A stretch of DNA of 64,000 nt from a phage, in sequence record NC_103192.1. The stretch is one strand, 5' to 3'. This document shows, in pieces, positions 3,639 through 61,550 of the stretch. Each line of letters begins with the position of its first letter. The stretch's first letter is position 1. Under the pieces are notes generated by a model. That model was not told the origin of the DNA. It was given only the letters and a program-made list of their open reading frames with translations, and ran no database searches. The position numbers and the translations under genes were made by a program.

Positions 3639-4037
3639 ATGAAAACCACAACCTTTAATTTTGACAATGCTGACTTCTCTTTTTCTGATGTTAAAAGCTG
3701 CCGCCGTGATCGCGGATTCTACAAGGCCTATAATCTGGTTGGCCTGGACGATGATAATAATTTGCACGAAGTAGCGGAGATCCGGTACTATGCCGCCGCC
3801 AGCGGTAACACTCACTACTGCGTTTTTTGGATACACGACAACAAGAACAATAAGTACGGTTATACTGGCGGCAAGGCGAGCGGTCACGGTTATGATAAAG
3901 CTAACGCAGCACTTGAGAGCGCATTAAATGCTATGGGGATCACTGCCGACGGCTGGATCTACGAAGAAGGGTTTTTGTCGGCACTTGCTGACCACCTAGG
4001 CTATAAAAAGCACATTGTAACATGTGCCCACGAATAA
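3639..4037 (+). CDS. Hypothetical early protein
   Basis: SD aagaggat; 132 aa. Confidence 0.5.
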   Translation: MKTTTFNFDNADFSFSDVKSCRRDRGFYKAYNLVGLDDDNNLHEVAEIRYYAAASGNTHYCVFWIHDNKNNKYGYTGGKASGHGYDKANAALESALNAMGITADGWIYEEGFLSALADHLGYKKHIVTCAHE

Positions 4038-4720: not shown

Positions 4721-4800
4721 TTGACAAGCTAACTTAAATCAGTATAATACTAAGCACATAAACGGGAAAACTTCCCAGAACACCAAAAGGAGAAAACATT

Positions 4801-5151
4801 ATGAATACTTCCATCACTATGACCGCCGAAGAAAAAGCCCTGCAGATCGCCGCTCTGAAAAAACAGATTGCAGAACTTGAAGACAAGATCGACAATTTTG
4901 AAATCGACGAAGACAAACACGACGATAAATATGATGAATGGTTAGACGAGATCTACGGCGAAATCATGATCGGAAACATTTCTTTTCTTCCGTCGCGTAT
5001 CCTCAAGGAGCTAGATCCTATCGCTTACCGCTGCGGATTTAGCGACTACATCGACAGCCTAGATATTGAGGACGATGAAGAATACCAGGAATTGCAGACA
5101 GAGCTCGAAGAAGTGAAAGAGGAGCTTTCAGAGCTGGAAGAAAACGAGTAA
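4801..5151 (+). CDS. Hypothetical acidic protein
   Basis: SD aaaaggagaaaac; leader hairpin; very acidic, heptad-like C-terminal half. Confidence 0.5.
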   Translation: MNTSITMTAEEKALQIAALKKQIAELEDKIDNFEIDEDKHDDKYDEWLDEIYGEIMIGNISFLPSRILKELDPIAYRCGFSDYIDSLDIEDDEEYQELQTELEEVKEELSELEENE

Positions 5152-12269: not shown

Positions 12270-12542
12270 ATGTCAAGCTGGATTAATCAAGAAGTCGAAT
12301 CACGTTTTAACGCTATTTGGGATCTCATCGAAAAAGAAGACGGAACATCAAGCCCCTACCTCAACAATTTGGAATTCCATTTTGTGGAAGCGATGAACGC
12401 AGAACATGATCACGAAGGTGGTGCGGATGAGTTCGCTAAAGGTTATGGCTTCAACAGCGCCAACGAAATGATCGAGGCGGTTGTACTCCAGGCTGAGGAA
12501 GATTATCAATTAAAAACGCTTGAATTTTGCCGCCGTAAGTAA
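12270..12542 (+). CDS. Hypothetical acidic early protein
   Basis: Promoter TTGACA at about 12186; SD aggagagagg. Confidence 0.5.
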   Translation: MSSWINQEVESRFNAIWDLIEKEDGTSSPYLNNLEFHFVEAMNAEHDHEGGADEFAKGYGFNSANEMIEAVVLQAEEDYQLKTLEFCRRK

Positions 12543-12601
12543 TAAGATAATGACACGGGCCAAAAGGCCCACCAAACCAGAACCGCATAGAGGTAAACAT
12601 C

Positions 12602-12865
12602 ATGAAACGTCTTGACCAGCTCAAACTAGTTCAATATATGGCTTATCGTGTTCTTGAAGTACAGAAAGGTAGCAAAAAAGAGGTTTGCGAAAAAGCGTAC
12701 AAGATCTTTACTCGTAAAAAAGATGATTGGATGTTACGCCAGACCAAAAAAGCCGATATCCTGGGGTACCTGGAAGAAGAGATCCGACTTGAAGAGCAAG
12801 AAGAGATCCGCCGTAGTGAGGCAGATTATCAGGCAGCTTGGGAAAACTGGATGAGCAACAAATAA
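12602..12865 (+). CDS. Hypothetical early protein
   Basis: SD agaggtaaa. Confidence 0.45.
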   Translation: MKRLDQLKLVQYMAYRVLEVQKGSKKEVCEKAYKIFTRKKDDWMLRQTKKADILGYLEEEIRLEEQEEIRRSEADYQAAWENWMSNK

Positions 12866-13008
12866 TACAACAAGTTACGGTCAGGGGGTAATAAAGCCCC
12901 TTGATCACATAAAAATTATGCTATCCCTGGTTGACAGGGATCGGCAGTTTTGCTATATTCTTTTTTGAAGGGAAGTTGTAAGAAAATTAACTAAGAGGTA
13001 AAAACACC

Positions 13009-13428
13009 ATGAACATTAAATCTAATAATCCGGCATATAGCTTTGATAACGCTTTTTGTCACGGTCCGGCGGCGAAAGGATTCGAAATCGATGGTAAACT
13101 AATTATTGTCAATGTTGACGGGGAAGAGGTTGCAGTATATCCGGTGGCAGACGTTAAAAGCCGTTTGCAATGCCGCATGGATGTTACCGCCTACCAGCTT
13201 GATCCGGTCCGCATAGTTGCCCTGGTCCTGGAGGAAGAGATCAAAGCAATGCACCACAGCAACAAGTTTATTGGTGACGCTCAAGATAATATGAAGGTGT
13301 GCCGCCATAAAGTTAATGAAGTGCTTAAAGAATATGGCTTTAAAGATCTGATGATCAAACGTGAGGAAAAATTCCGCTACCGTAACGACCTGGCAAATCG
13401 GATTTTTGAAATATACGAATCATTATAA
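13009..13428 (+). CDS. Hypothetical early protein (139 aa)
   Basis: Promoter TTGACA at about 12932; SD aagaggtaaaaa. Confidence 0.5.
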   Translation: MNIKSNNPAYSFDNAFCHGPAAKGFEIDGKLIIVNVDGEEVAVYPVADVKSRLQCRMDVTAYQLDPVRIVALVLEEEIKAMHHSNKFIGDAQDNMKVCRHKVNEVLKEYGFKDLMIKREEKFRYRNDLANRIFEIYESL

Positions 13429-13446
13429 TTTCTTAACTGAATTATC

Positions 13447-13475
13447 AAGGGGCTTAAAGGCCCCTTTCTTTTTGT
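13447..13475 (+). terminator. Rho-independent terminator
   Basis: aaggggcttaaaggcccctt hairpin plus T-run; ends the plus-strand early block. Confidence 0.65.
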
Positions 13476-14079
13476 CTGCTCTTCTCCTACCATAAACGGC
13501 CCCACCCGGCAAGTGGAATAATTGACTAGCCAGCAATTGCCTGCACTGTACAAACATACAGGTAAAATAGTTATTGCATAACCTTTCATTGTGTGGTAGC
13601 AGTGCCATTTTTACACGTTTTTCCTTCCAAAATTGCACGTAATGCCGCTATTGCATAAATTTTAACCTGATGCATATCTTCAATATCTTGTCAACAACTA
13701 AAAATCTTTATAAGTCATACACTTACACCACCACAAAAGCGTGTTCTACGTGAAAAATCGGGTGTAACTATAGCCGCCAGATCTCAGAATTTACGTACGC
13801 TCACCAGTCTATAGCCTGCTAAGTATTTATTCCAACCATAGAATAACGGAATAGTCAATACCTGCATAAAATAATTATTCGTGTAAACTGCATAACATAA
13901 ATCAGCCAGGGTGTCAACATTTTTCGTAAACATCTCGAAATTATCACGATGAGTTATCATAAACAGAGAAATCTTTAGTCGTCTAATGTTTACTGTACAT
14001 TACTATACTGGCTGGAATCATTAGATGACTAAGAGAAAGATAAGAAATAGTTAACAATGTAATTGTTTTACCTGTAACA

Positions 14080-14310
14080 ATAAGGCAACTATGCAAACGA
14101 ATGGCATGGCGCGACGGAGTCGCGACATAATATAAAAGCAGTAACCATCACCCCCGTGATAGTTTGTCTGCAAACTATTAATCAGATCATAGTTGCCTTG
14201 TAGTTAGTTAATCATGACACAATAAGCAAGGCAACTATAGATCTGCTAATAGTTGCCCTGCTTTTATATTATGTCATAGAAACACCCGAAGGGGTGACCG
14301 AAGGTCACCT
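14080..14310. repeat. Nested inverted repeats (18-bp gacataatataaaagcag / ctgcttttatattatgtc; four copies of CAAGGCAACT in alternating orientation)
   Basis: Read directly: 14124-14141 versus 14258-14275; motif copies at about 14082, 14189, 14229, 14249. Confidence 0.7.
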
Positions 14311-14329
14311 GGCCTAGCCAGTGAAAGAT

Positions 14330-14530
14330 TATTAACTTGTTAATTGTTAACTTGCTAATTGTTTTCATGCAAACGAATGTCATGGCTTATCATATCTGCG
14401 TGAACAGTGAAACATGGAAATGATAAATATGTGAACAGTTATCCATGTAAACTATTAGACATGCAAACAATCAGGTGTGCAAAAGTGACATAGTATGTCA
14501 CCAGTATGTCATAGTATGTCAGACAAGTTT
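14330..14530. repeat. Direct repeats and overlapping palindromes (ATGCAAACRAAT x3, GTGAACAG x3, TGACATAGTATGTCA array)
   Basis: Read directly in a non-coding tract. Confidence 0.65.
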
Positions 14531-16006
14531 TTCTCCTCTTTGTCAAGTGCTGCATGGAAAATTTACAAACTGGTATGGTAGCATTTTTGCGGCCCTGTTT
14601 ACATTCAGGAGTGTATGTATAATCCTTGTTGTGTGGGCGTTTAGACGTCTGGACGGTCAGAAGTCCGCAGGTTAATATCTAATCTATTGGTTGCTAACTA
14701 TATCCCACACAAATAGTAAGAAATATAATTGTTATATGCGTAAACAGTAACTCATGTTATCAATCCATGTATGGATCGCCAGTGGTGCGCATAATGGGTA
14801 TTATGTTAAATTGCCCGTAATGATAACCATTCCCACAATGATAGGTATTCTCATTCACCCCCACAAGATAGGTTGCAAATGTTGTGCCACTGTGTGAACG
14901 GCCTCACCTATTAATTTGCCCCACTGCCTCGATATTTGAGAATTGTTATAAGAATGAGAAGTATTCCCATTCCGTCCGCCTGGCAGCACTCCAGTCGCTA
15001 ACGCTCTCGGGCTGAGAGCTATGCTCGATGCTACCGGCTCCTGACAGGGAGGCACTCCTGTAGGACAGGTCAAAATCGGGGCATAACTGGACCCCCCTTC
15101 AGATATTTCTGGCTGACTCTTCAGGTCTGTGTGGGAAAAGCCAACCTCTCCGGCAGAGGGGAGGGGGTCAATTAAAAAATTTACGTGGTGTATGAAGCGC
15201 TCTTCAGGCAAGGTGTGTATTATGGGAGGAATCACTCTTCAGGTGATGATATTTGTGGGTGTGATATTTGCTGGAAAGCCAGATATGACGGGACTCCCGG
15301 CGGGGCAGGGGTAGTACAGACAGGGAAAATGTGGAGAATGTGGTGGGTAAATTGATCAGGCAGGTAGAGTATGAAATATGTTACAGGTATGTTAAATATG
15401 GAGGGTGAATATCTGTAAGATTTGTGTGTAAAATCAAAGACTTAAGTGGTGTTGTGGTATTTTCTATAAATAATTCAAGTTTAATAGGTAATATTTGTCT
15501 CTATCCACTTTGTGTGGTAACCAGATTCAGATGAAATTGGTTTACAAGTGTATACATAATATACAAATTAAAGATACAAGAAACCCCCCTCCCCCTTCGG
15601 CTACCATTCACCTTTTCCTCTGACTGGTACTTAAACACTTATTCAGACTCTTCAGGTTATCACCCATATATCATATGGCAGTGACTGGTGTCCTCCGGCC
15701 CCTCTTTCGTCACCCGTCCGCTTCGCCATGCTAATGCCATAGCCAAAGGTTCGGTTGTTCACCCTGTTCACTCAGGTGTATCTCCATACCCCTTCAAACC
15801 GAAGAGAACAGAAAACCCGAATTACTCGGTAAAAGAAAAGAGAAGAACTTAATTTTATCAGGATAGGCAAGAATGTCAAGGCATGACTGCTCACTAAACA
15901 AGCAAACAGTCATGTGTGGGAGGTAAGTGATTGTGGTGGTAGGAAATTTAGTTGAAAGATGTGTTATAGGTGCTTCCAGCACTTTAGCCGGGCAGCTAAT
16001 TGTGTG

Positions 16007-16222
16007 TCAGTCCAGCGGTTCATCTACTACTTCACTGAAATCAATGTTCAGAGTCTCTTCCCAACCATCGATCTCAGCACAAGAGTGGAGTTCTTTAGGG
16101 TTTACTCCCAAAGCCTCAGCAACAGAGTCTATATTTAACACCTCTGGCAGGTATGATTCATCGAATTCAAGGTAAATCAGGCCACGAGTGTTGTCAGCTC
16201 CACCAAATATTTCTATCTTCAT
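16007..16222 (-). CDS. Hypothetical acidic protein
   Basis: ORF at the distal end of the minus-strand gene array. Confidence 0.4.
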   Translation of the reverse strand: MKIEIFGGADNTRGLIYLEFDESYLPEVLNIDSVAEALGVNPKELHSCAEIDGWEETLNIDFSEVVDEPLD

Positions 16223-16342
16223 AAAATCTCCTCTGGAAATGAGAGTGTGAACAGGGTTATACGTTCCAATGCACTGGAATTTATATACGTTTGCCTCTTC
16301 AGGCCATGCTTTAGCATGATAAACTTGTGTGGGCTCGGTACT

Positions 16343-16756
16343 TCATAGTCTGCCACCTCTGAACTCTTCGTTCTCAGGCATGATAGAGAACCAGATGGCT
16401 ATGATGTCCTCCCACGTCAGGTCATCAGCCTCAGGATCTACCTGGAGCGAAGATGGAGAATCTTCAGAATTGAAGTTTTTCTCTTTCACTGTCTCAGCCA
16501 AGGGACATATAGTCACTCCTTTGGATGCCTCTTCAGATGCATGTGTGTTTATCATGTTCCACCCGTGAGTATTCCGGCAACAACTGCTATGGACGTAATG
16601 ATCATCAGGATCACCACCAAAACCTCTGACAATGTTTTCATTGTGCGCTCCATATTCTCCAAATGATGTGTGGATACTATCACAGGAGCGGTAATGTGTC
16701 AACAGAAACGCCGCGAGGGTTTGGTTAAAATCCGAGCGTATGGTGATTTGGGTCAA
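16343..16756 (-). CDS. Hypothetical protein
   Basis: ORF in the minus-strand array. Confidence 0.4.
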   Translation of the reverse strand: MTQITIRSDFNQTLAAFLLTHYRSCDSIHTSFGEYGAHNENIVRGFGGDPDDHYVHSSCCRNTHGWNMINTHASEEASKGVTICPLAETVKEKNFNSEDSPSSLQVDPEADDLTWEDIIAIWFSIMPENEEFRGGRL

Positions 16757-16915
16757 AACGGACGTGCGTTCTCGCTACGCTCGAAAGAGAGATTTGTTCG
16801 TAGGAAGCTCTTAAACGCTCTGTAATGAGATTAACTGCCCAAGGTATGCAATCGTGCACCAGATAAAGAAAAGGACGCCACAGAGCGTCCTAGGTGTCTT
16901 AAATTTGATATTTTG

Positions 16916-17227
16916 CTATACCCATGAGGGCTTATCAAGGTTGGAGTAGCTGAAAGGTGTCAAAAGGTGACTGTCAAAATCCCTCAAACTATCCAAATCT
17001 TTTTCCTCGTCCTGACACCATCTGTGCCTACATTTATTGTTGTAGTGCATGGAATGCATAGCGTTCTGCAACTTAACAGGCACAAGTGATTCAGGAGTAG
17101 ATAGTATTGTAGGGTATGCCAGAACCACCTCAAACAGTGGAAATACATCGAAACTAAAGTCTACCTCTGCAGAGGTTGATGGCATATAGGAGTATTTAGC
17201 CGCCTTTGTAGACATAATCCACCTCAC
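16916..17227 (-). CDS. Hypothetical protein
   Basis: ORF, 4-nt overlap with upstream gene. Confidence 0.4.
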   Translation of the reverse strand: MRWIMSTKAAKYSYMPSTSAEVDFSFDVFPLFEVVLAYPTILSTPESLVPVKLQNAMHSMHYNNKCRHRWCQDEEKDLDSLRDFDSHLLTPFSYSNLDKPSWV

Positions 17228-60600: not shown

Positions 60601-60675
60601 GCCACCCAGTGCCCTGTTAGCTTAGTGGATAAAGCAGCGGCCTTCTAAGCCGTTGACACTGGTTCGAGTCCAGTA
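60601..60675 (+). tRNA. tRNA-Arg (anticodon TCT)
   Basis: Hand-folded cloverleaf: acceptor GCCCTGT/ACGGGGT, anticodon loop CTTCTAA, T-loop TTCGAGT, CCA encoded. Confidence 0.7.
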
Positions 60676-60815
60676 CGGGGTGCCAAGTTCTTTTTAATGT
60701 AGCTTACTTTAGCAGAGTAAATCTTCGGCAAGTGGCGGTAACCACTTTACCGATACCTCATAGTTAGTGGTGAGAACACTAGCTATTTTAAAAAGAATTT
60801 AAATATTAGTATTTA

Positions 60816-60903
60816 GGTGAGTTAATTCCGTAGGGGTAGCGGGGCAGACTGTAAATCTGTTATCATTGCGATTCGGGTGGTTCGACTCCATCACTCACCA
60901 CCA
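60816..60903 (+). tRNA. tRNA-Tyr (anticodon GTA), long variable arm
   Basis: Acceptor GGTGAGT/ACTCACC, anticodon arm CAGACTGTAAATCTG as in E. coli tRNA-Tyr, T-loop TTCGACT, CCA. Confidence 0.7.
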
Positions 60904-61017
60904 AATTTATATTTTTAAATGCATAAATCATACAGATAATGGCATTGATATTTATCGTCGTTTATACTAGTCACTAACTGCTCGAAAATCAGTGTCATTA
61001 TCAGTATTGTTTATAAA

Positions 61018-61108
61018 AGAGGGTAGGGAGCAATGGTGCTCAAGCGGTCTTGAAAACCGTCCCGTTGAGGATGACTCGATGATGGTTCGATTCCATTATC
61101 CTCTGCCA
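61018..61108 (+). tRNA. tRNA-Ser (anticodon TGA), long variable arm
   Basis: Acceptor AGAGGGT/ATCCTCT, anticodon arm CGGTCTTGAAAACCG, T-loop TTCGATT, CCA. Confidence 0.7.
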
Positions 61109-61206
61109 TATTGTTGACTATGTAATTAAGCGAAAGCCGGAAGCAGAACCGGATTATCAAATGTTACAGTCGTCATCGCCGACTAGCAACATGGTCAACA
61201 TACTGA

Positions 61207-61305
61207 GCTAGGTAAGCCCTTTGGCAAGGGCGAGGATTTTTAATCCTGAAAATAGACGAGGTAGTCGTTGAATACATAGGTGGTTCGATTCCATCACCTA
61301 GCACC
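61207..61305 (+). tRNA. Atypical tRNA-like element (type II shape, irregular anticodon arm)
   Basis: Acceptor GCTAGGT/ACCTAGC, D-arm GCCC/GGGC, T-loop TTCGATT, long variable arm; anticodon region is either a 5-nt loop or a 4-bp stem with TTTTTAA loop; no CCA. Confidence 0.35.
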
Positions 61306-61310
61306 TTTTT

Positions 61311-61386
61311 GCTGATGTAGCACAATTGGTAGTGCAATTGATTTGTAATCAATAGGTTGCAGGTTCAAGTCCTGCCATCAGCACCA
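61311..61386 (+). tRNA. tRNA-Thr (anticodon TGT)
   Basis: Acceptor GCTGATG/CATCAGC, anticodon loop TTTGTAA, T-loop TTCAAGT, CCA. Confidence 0.75.
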
Positions 61387-61387
61387 T

Positions 61388-61462
61388 GGCCCTGTAGCTG
61401 GAAGGTTCAAGCAAGCGACTCATAATCGCCAGACGGTGGTTCAATTCCACCCAGGGCCACCA
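61388..61462 (+). tRNA. tRNA-Met or Ile2 (anticodon CAT)
   Basis: Acceptor GGCCCTG/CAGGGCC, anticodon loop CTCATAA, T-loop TTCAATT, CCA. Confidence 0.75.
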
Positions 61463-61473
61463 AATAATAAATA

Positions 61474-61550
61474 CTCCGCGTAGCTCAGCTTGGTAGAGTG
61501 CCTGATTTGGGATCAGGAGGTCGAGTGTTCGAATCACTCCGTGGAGACCA
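61474..61550 (+). tRNA. tRNA-Pro (anticodon TGG)
   Basis: Acceptor CTCCGCG/CGTGGAG, anticodon loop TTTGGGA, T-loop TTCGAAT, CCA. Confidence 0.75.

Follow-up and report, generated by a model that had tools for sequence, protein, structure and literature searches.

The short terminal repeats of phage genomes are described as arising from staggered nicks followed by extension of the recessed 3' ends (PMC5557969). Among rV5-like phages and their relatives, terminal redundancies of 458 bp were reported for EdH4 and HdK5 (Korf et al., 2019; PMC6563267), the account of Gotham gives a doubled-coverage region and a single packaging start sequence for all virions (Dias et al., 2020; PMC7471380), and a 328-bp repeat was reported for the phAPEC8-like phages (PMC6563267). 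In other genera, a direct terminal repeat (DTR) of 514 bp was assigned to KPP-1 (Mydovirus) by twofold coverage and PhageTerm, and one of 443 bp (positions 200-642) to PBES 02 (Certrevirus) by PhageTerm (PMC5557969). The present analysis concerns a gap without credible genes at positions 13429-16006 of a stretch of phage DNA from record NC_103192.1; the window refers to this whole stretch, 64,000 nucleotides long. The gap is probably, with a likelihood of about 0.78, the terminal-repeat (concatemer-junction) region of a Vequintavirus genome, and on the basis of its sequence the locus is assigned, together with EdH4, HdK5, Gotham, KPP-1 and PBES 02, to the short-terminal-repeat group of the Vequintavirinae.

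EdH4, HdK5 and Gotham carry the same 459-bp repeat as the window, with identical end nucleotides. KPP-1 and PBES 02 have homologous ends with the same placement, each repeat lying in a gene-poor gap of ~1.75 kb between convergent gene blocks, but their right flanks are only ~335 nt long and lack the 700-nt AT-rich stretch, the promoter and the invariant block of the window. The arrangement also resembles the concatemer junction of T7 and T3 in its short exact repeat (160 and 231 bp in T7 and T3, respectively), its fixed ends and its adjacent arrays of short repeats. In T7, these arrays (SRL and SRR) and a promoter, A0, located near the left end and firing towards it, were reportedly described by Dunn and Studier in 1983; the arrays of the window and its end-directed, host-type promoter correspond to them. 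Unlike T7, the present phage is a myovirus of ~137 kb, its repeat is three times longer, and the repeat lies in a 2.5-kb gene-free gap between convergent units instead of at the start of a single rightward programme. The gap and T7 have no sequence similarity.

The terminal repeat and its proposed cut sites

The phage was identified as a Vequintavirus (an rV5-like myovirus) by sequence comparison, in which 121 phage records, essentially all of them Vequintavirus, matched positions 13400-16000 with 88-94% identity. The gap is bounded by the stop of the plus-strand gene block at 13428 and the stop of the first minus-strand gene at 16007, and the two flanking blocks converge on it. In the records of EdH4, HdK5 and Gotham, the first 459 nt are exactly the same as the last 459 nt, and the Gotham record annotates a repeat_region at both ends. 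This repeat maps to positions 14522-14980, where it is 95-96% identical to the window and identical in its terminal 40-mers; the left end reads 5'-GACAAGTTTTTCTCC on the top strand and the right end 5'-GGCGGACGGAATGGG on the bottom strand. At least five more records (YN3, bov11CS3, bov25_3, bov22_2 and ECP2309) are opened at the same two nucleotides. The same sequence at both ends, the mark of a short exact DTR, was found in the relatives, and is predicted for the present phage. The window contains the repeat once, as expected of DNA assembled across the junction.

The conservation of the region was analyzed in an alignment of 17 genomes, consisting of the window, 14 fetched records and the stitched ends of EdH4 and HdK5. 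Identity was 94-96% inside the DTR and collapsed just outside both of its boundaries, in indel-rich zones at 14250-14520 and 14990-15090. Among the functions that the initial annotation of this DNA had proposed for the region, a packaging site is supported by these data, with the DTR and both cut sites at 14522-14980.

Additionally, the ends of the three genera were compared. At the left end, the top strand reads TGTCA^GACAAGTTTTTCTCCTCTTTGTCAAG in the window, TGCTA^AACACAATTCTCTCTCCTTGTCAAG in KPP-1 and TGCCT^GGCAAAATTCACTCTTCGTGTCAAG in PBES 02 (^, cut). At the right end, the bottom strand reads TGCCA^GGCGGACGG, TGCTA^GACGGACAG and TGCCA^GGCATGGCG in the same order. All six ends align on homologous nucleotides and read 5'-TGYY(A/T)^RRC on the strand in which the new 5' end is formed, so the position of the ends, as in a short DTR, is conserved across three genera. 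The boundaries in the window are 5'-TGTCA^GAC on the top strand (left) and 5'-TGCCA^GGC on the bottom strand (right), and this occurrence of the motif on opposite strands at the two boundaries is as predicted by the staggered-nick model. The cut sites of the window and of PBES 02 are, moreover, 9-bp palindromes or near-palindromes (TGTCAGACA, TGCCTGGCA). The nicking rule TGYY(A/T)^RRC is a well-supported hypothesis and not a result.

The likeness extends beyond the ends, as several 9-mers occur in the same order across the window, KPP-1 and PBES 02: ACTAGCCAG(GGT), CTGCATAAA and CGTAAACAG to the left of the repeat, GTATTATGTTAAAT and AAATTTACAAA inside it, and CCTCTCCGGC, CTCTTCAGG, TGTGGGAAA and TGATATTTG to its right. 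These ordered 9-mers indicate an old, conserved end architecture. Other ways of locating the locus were less productive. The neighbouring 101-aa regulator was rejected as a guide because synteny between its gene and the repeat does not extend to KPP-1, and the proteins flanking the KPP-1 gap are unrelated to those flanking the gap of the window. An exact 15-mer search of IMG/VR with TGACATAGTATGTCA gave 52 unrelated chance matches. A locus search with the neighbouring 71-aa protein returned Vequintavirus contigs only, among them L075 (IMGVR_UViG_3300010279_000001; 137,418 bp), a divergent Vequintavirus with flanking genes 60-90% identical. This contig retains the terminal repeat, the inverted-repeat element and the invariant block, and is usable as an outgroup for the genus.

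One deposited genome departs from the usual arrangement. Shigella phage CM1 (MK962749) carries a tandem duplication of ~64 nt of the left flank and the whole 459-bp repeat, corresponding to positions ~14457-14980 of the window. At the junction of the two copies CCGTCCGCC is followed directly by GTATCCAGTG, which is neither a simple end-to-end joint nor a normal junction. The duplication could be an assembly artefact originating from doubled coverage, or a real variant.

Coding status and conserved elements of the gap

The gap comprises ~2580 bases that are dense in non-random repeats, and its longest open reading frame (ORF) has 126 codons for amino acids and a GTG start. None of the nine gap ORFs was matched in searches of PHROGs and Pfam, and ARAGORN detected no tRNA or tmRNA in the gap. 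In the 17-genome alignment, no 3-base periodicity of variable sites was observed in any block of 13470-15982, the sites being distributed evenly (1:1:1); in the control genes flanking the gap, one codon position holds 34 of 44 and 23 of 34 variable sites. The third-position bias and protein-family homology expected of a coding gene or pseudogene were thus both absent from the gap. The description of the region in the initial annotation, as 2.4 kb poor in ORFs and dense in repeats, was confirmed by these results, and the comparison with related genomes suggested there as a check revealed a conserved DTR and near-invariant blocks, and no conserved coding gene. The genome map of rV5 published in 2013 had drawn the gap as a grey "non-coding" box without ORFs, and its authors saw a change of GC/AT skew at this place, which they ascribed to the switch in the direction of transcription (PMC3606486).

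Small ORFs are annotated in the gap by several records, with mutually inconsistent positions and strands. Tiny ORFs in or beside the gap are found in APCEc02 (3653-3787 and 1718-1981) and as navn_131 and naswa_156, and among the names given to them are "DNA translocase FtsK" (87 aa) and, for one of 44 aa within the non-coding right flank, "structural protein"; these labels look like annotation carry-over and not like evidence. Nineteen matching records are named as Campylobacter phages (UNVERIFIED and unannotated; e.g., C9, MG065661) and are 88-93% identical to the E. coli Vequintaviruses in this region; their host label looks doubtful. Elsewhere in the window, ARAGORN reported a tRNA-like gene of 99 nt with a four-base anticodon (atcc) at 61207-61305, within a tRNA cluster at 60611-61550.

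From left to right, the gap opens with an intrinsic terminator on the plus strand (13447-13466; AAGGGGCTTAAAGGCCCCTT followed by a T-run) which closes the plus-strand gene block and is annotated in EdH4, HdK5, Gotham, Murica and Alma. It is followed by a moderately conserved, non-coding left flank (13470-14074), as judged from the conservation profile, the lack of codon periodicity and the 9-mers common to KPP-1 and PBES 02. The motifs of this flank common to other genera are ACTAGCCAG (13525), CTGCATAA (13862 and 13888) and AGCCAGGGT (13904), and a block of 50 nt at 13850-13899 is near-invariant.

A near-invariant inverted-repeat element occupies 14075-14277, with identity of 0.99-1.0 over 14100-14199. 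Here the 18-bp perfect inverted repeat noticed in the initial annotation (14124-14141 and 14258-14275) was verified, and it encloses two operator-like palindromes of 34 bp, CWRGSMAACTAT-N10-ATAGTTGCCYTG (12-N10-12), located at ~14167-14200 and 14227-14260, with a 60-bp offset; a further half-site occupies 14081-14092. The four alternating CAAGGCAACT(AT) (CAAGGCAACTAT) sites that had been listed at this place were also recovered, at 14081 (+), 14189 (-), 14227 (+) and 14249 (-), and the window as a whole contains six against 0.51 expected. Each N10 spacer holds a GATC (Dam) site (14183-14186 and 14240-14243), and binding at these palindromes could be sensitive to methylation. The element also includes a terminator-like hairpin on the minus strand (14143-14164; AACTATCACGGGGGTGATGGTT followed by a T-rich tail), which is invariant in the 17 genomes. 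KPP-1 has the same design in a different sequence, a 21-bp perfect inverted repeat with four ATGATAAnnnTTATCAT palindromes, and these four copies lie at 4740-4960, beside its terminal repeat. One of them agrees at 16 of 19 positions with what we take to be the consensus of the E. coli Fur box. The palindromes point to a candidate dimeric DNA-binding protein that would co-evolve with its sites. The suggestion that the region is a protein-binding locus is plausible in this respect, as it agrees with the repeat arrays and with both 34-bp palindromes.

Between this element and the left cut lies a hypervariable array (14278-14521, read on the plus strand), 183-305 bp long across the 17 genomes. It consists of 1-9 RYRAAYNRT units (GTRAACAGT type) with a spacing of 15-16 bp and, nearer the cut, of 2-5 TGTCA units, mostly ~10-11 bp from one another. 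The final TGTCA stops precisely at the left cut (TGTCA^GACAAG). Some of the features first listed in and around this array were confirmed only in part. The TGACATA/TATGTCA palindrome array (14486-14521) is real and abuts the left cut, but the conserved feature in it is the run of 2-5 direct TGTCA repeats. The GGTGACC-gaa-GGTCACC hairpin is present at 14294-14310 and appears dispensable, since it is deleted in 10 of the 17 relatives. Two of the three proposed ATGCAAACRAAT repeats are exact (14091 and 14367), but the third (14461) has two mismatches and the pattern is not above chance in the window as a whole.

To the right of the repeat, a second hypervariable array (14981-15090, read on the plus strand) was found, in which identity falls to 0.19 over 15000-15049. 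It starts with a cut-proximal TGGCAGCACTCC, after which come GCACTCCWGT / CTCCTGNNAGG units, in numbers that vary, and small hairpins. The next segment (15091-15330, read on the plus strand) is a cluster of motifs conserved within the genus, with CTCTTCAGG at 15117, 15200 and 15235, two copies of TGATATTTG, and a hairpin with a G-run (15145-15167) that is terminator-like on the minus strand (15159-15145). PBES 02 has the motifs CCTCTCCGGC, CTCTTCAGG, TGTGGGAAA, TGATATTTG and CCCGGCGGG in its right flank as well, and KPP-1 has related ones.

All four CTCTTCAGG motifs of the initial annotation are present in the gap, the fourth at 15648, within a total of 540 nt. The window contains eight copies, all on the plus strand, against 0.56 expected. 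Three distant copies lie inside ORFs as Pro-Glu-Glu codons, and the fifth copy (16295-16303), which on the minus strand reads CCTGAAGAG-N9-TATAAAT, is located ~75 nt upstream of the ATG of the gene at 16222-16007. The box at 16295 may be part of a phage-specific promoter, and its -10 part resembles a T4-late-like motif mentioned by the authors of the rV5 genome (PMC3606486). As a general promoter box CTCTTCAGG was rejected, because a good TATAAAT lies nine bases downstream at 16295 only, the four gap copies lack one and the three distant copies are coding.

The motif cluster is separated from the invariant block by an AT-rich spacer (15331-15582), in which the GC content falls to 29%, G strongly exceeds C, and TGTGG-type motifs are enriched on the plus strand. 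TGTGG, GTGTGG, TGTGTG and GTGGTG are 5-15 times denser on the plus strand of 14600-16010 than elsewhere in the window, and such TG-rich motifs are almost absent from the minus strand of the same segment. The local GC skew is +0.67 over 15300-15399 and then -0.54 over 15550-15649.

The invariant block downstream of the minus-strand promoter

A sigma-70-type promoter was recognized on the minus strand at 15852-15879, with a -35 box TTGACA (15879-15874), a 16-nt spacer and a TG-extended -10 box TAAAAT (15857-15852). It matches 11 of the 12 consensus positions in addition to the TG, and is directed towards the genome end. Within the genus its changes fall mostly in the spacer, and L075 retains both hexamers around a rewritten spacer that has 2 nt more. 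Directly downstream lies an almost invariant block of ~263 nt (15583-15845, minus strand), which has a pyrimidine tract (UCUUCUCUUUUC) at its 5' end and a G-run (GAAGGGGGAGGGGGGUU) at its 3' end, and contains the fourth CTCTTCAGG.

This block barely varies across 20 genomes and is the most conserved DNA of the neighbourhood. Nucleotide diversity was 0-0.011 over 15600-15899, as against 0.03-0.05 in the adjacent gene. L075 has only three differences in the 300 nt downstream of the promoter, and B9-1 and S127 have three in the block, as against ~100 per 1001 nt overall, located at the same loop and linker positions as those of other genomes. In phage C9 the similarity is lost completely immediately beyond GGGGGAGGGGGGUU, and this places the 3' limit of the block near 15583. 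No homologue of the block was detected by blastn outside the genus among phages (E <= 1), and none in 5,426 E. coli genomes.

The trimmed RNA of ~263 nt gave a folding z-score of -2.11, with a 12-bp terminal stem in which the 5' pyrimidine tract is paired to the 3' G-run; longer constructs of the module gave -0.70 and -1.74. Folds of 287 and 866 nt on both strands had z-scores between -1.74 and +1.19, and no large structured RNA was found across 14981-15846. Compensatory pair changes numbered zero among nine distinct sequences of a block that hardly varies. Rfam 15 returned no match at E <= 1 over 12500-17000, and over 15500-15900 only noise (E = 2-7, far below the gathering scores). A literature search for transcriptomes of Vequintavirinae returned nothing relevant. 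The proposal that the region is a locus for non-coding RNA may apply to the conserved promoter and the almost invariant 263-nt block behind it, but finds no backing in Rfam or in covariation. The module appears to be specific to Vequintavirus and is a candidate non-coding RNA or replication primer transcript; the role of the invariant block may also be purely at the DNA level.

Several known systems are similar in part. The order of promoter, constrained leader, G-run in the transcript (GGGGGAGGGGGG) and AT-rich DNA recalls that of ColE1 RNA II, T4 oriF and oriG, and mitochondrial CSB II, as a resemblance only. A small non-coding unit within ~1 kb of a genome end and beside the packaging signals is also like the pRNA of phi29. 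The analogy is remote, as phi29 has protein-primed replication and no terminal repeat, and Rfam returned nothing for the block of the window.

Proposed packaging, replication and transcription at the junction

Several points weigh against placing the genome ends in this gap. The termini of the present phage are taken from relatives that are 95-96% identical, the DTR accounts for only 459 of the ~2580 gene-free bases, and binding of the terminase by the flanking arrays is a proposal made by analogy. The cut motif was noticed post hoc, rV5 (TGCCT) and inoa (TGTTA) are each off at one position, and the probability that at least six of its eight positions match by chance, about 0.004, is our own estimate and refers to the window alone. 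Moreover, two papers report PhageTerm calls of Vequintavirus genomes as "circular permutated" (the bov phages) and "headful (pac)" (BpE1AUH) (PMC8407724, PMC13211470), and most records were deposited with arbitrary start points, as would be the case if these phages were packaged by the headful from a pac site, with circular permutation, and the 459-bp repeat were an artefact of assembly or convention. Such packaging is nevertheless very unlikely, given the agreement of four groups on homologous fixed ends: two laboratories obtained the same 459-bp repeat and end nucleotides, one of them with a single packaging start for all virions (PMC6563267, PMC7471380), and two more groups placed homologous ends in other genera by read-start peaks. 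The conservation profile also shifts sharply at exactly both boundaries, and transposase-made libraries lose the termini, according to the authors of PhageTerm (PMC5557969). The idea that the gap consists of decayed genes or of functionless neutral spacer, for which the small and conflicting ORF annotations of several records might speak, is barely credible and already contradicted by the conservation data. The segments 14100-14199 and 15583-15920 are more conserved than the neighbouring genes, motifs and architecture are common to three genera, and the gap has neither codon periodicity nor protein-family homology.

The segment 15583-15879 could be an independent non-coding RNA gene, whose RNA of ~263 nt with paired ends would act in trans, for instance in host takeover or anti-defence. 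This is compatible with the terminal-repeat explanation, as the RNA gene would merely reside in a gene-free end region, and it is a tentative possibility, somewhat short of an even chance. It is favored by the near-consensus promoter with its extended -10 box, whose hexamers are kept in L075 while the spacer is rewritten, by conservation that starts at the predicted start site and ends at the G-run in C9, and by three differences in 263 nt amid ~10% divergence around the block. The lack of codon periodicity and of protein-family matches, the z-score and terminal stem of the trimmed RNA, and the appearance of the module as an addition, given that KPP-1 and PBES 02 have nothing like it in their much shorter right flanks, point the same way. 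The few substitutions lie in predicted loops or keep the pairing through G-U, although one breaks a pair. It is opposed by the lack of an Rfam match even at E = 10 and of compensatory pair changes, by the unremarkable z-scores of the longer versions, and by the absence of a canonical 3' terminator; a weak hairpin with a U-tract (15829-15817) could, moreover, end transcription after ~30 nt, and the invariance of every base exceeds what RNA stems alone would need. A doubtful variant is that of a genus-specific unit, ~600-860 bp inside the left genome end, in which the host promoter would fire towards the DTR and produce a 263-nt RNA of an undescribed family, ending in G5AG6, that primes replication through an R-loop at the G-run or serves end processing or packaging; a role of this kind would explain why every nucleotide is fixed amid 10-20% divergence. 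A replication origin in all or part of the region is unlikely. In one version, the transcript from the promoter at 15879 would form a stable RNA-DNA hybrid at the G-run (15583-15597) and prime synthesis in 15331-15582; in the other, an initiator protein would bind the palindromes at 14167-14260 or the GTRAACAGT array. The order of promoter, invariant leader, G5AG6 run and 29% GC stretch is seen directly, the repeat arrays and palindromes resemble iterons, and the cumulative GC skew turns at the gap, as the rV5 authors saw (PMC3606486). However, the skew turns where the orientation of the genes changes, an explanation that the same authors regarded as sufficient (PMC3606486). DnaA boxes are not enriched (11 in the window against 8.7 expected, with two in the region), the adjacent genes include no initiator, and near-identical phages differ in the copy number of the array (1 to 9). 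The short right flanks of the sister genera, which must replicate too, also have no counterpart of the module formed by the promoter and the G-run.

If the gap is the terminal-repeat region, each genome unit would contain one copy of the DTR in replicating or assembled DNA, and virion DNA two copies. By analogy with T7-type phages, the terminase would recognize the junction by means of the arrays that border the DTR: on the left, the GTRAACAGT units with their 15-16-bp period together with the TGTCA units ~10-11 bp apart, and on the right, the GCACTCCWGT / CTCCTGNNAGG units. It would then nick the two strands at sites separated by 459 bp, in each case after TGYY(A/T), and fill-in of the recessed 3' ends would restore a complete repeat in every daughter molecule. 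Transcription converging from the flanking blocks would be halted by the plus-strand terminator at 13447-13466 and by the terminator-like hairpins on the minus strand. The most likely roles of the remaining conserved elements are the binding of phage proteins and the production of a small non-coding transcript.

The repeat itself had already been published in sister phages, and the locus is largely of a known kind, to which the present analysis adds details of its anatomy. The cited papers state only the length of the repeat; in their relevant passages, it is not connected with the "non-coding" box of rV5, and the cut motif, the arrays, the palindrome element and the invariant block are not described. 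The rV5-like phages are widely used for the biocontrol of E. coli O157, in phage-therapy cocktails and in the BASEL collection, and their records are deposited with arbitrary starts, some of them described as circularly permuted. The true ends and a cut motif common to three genera would provide a simple rule for orienting and annotating these genomes, and the placement of the ends may help in judging the risk of transduction (fixed-end versus headful packaging) and in designing engineered or rebooted genomes. Moreover, the comparison singles out a set of short conserved elements, namely the flanking arrays, the two palindromes, the CTCTTCAGG boxes and the invariant promoter-driven block, the last of which is the only part that may represent new biology.

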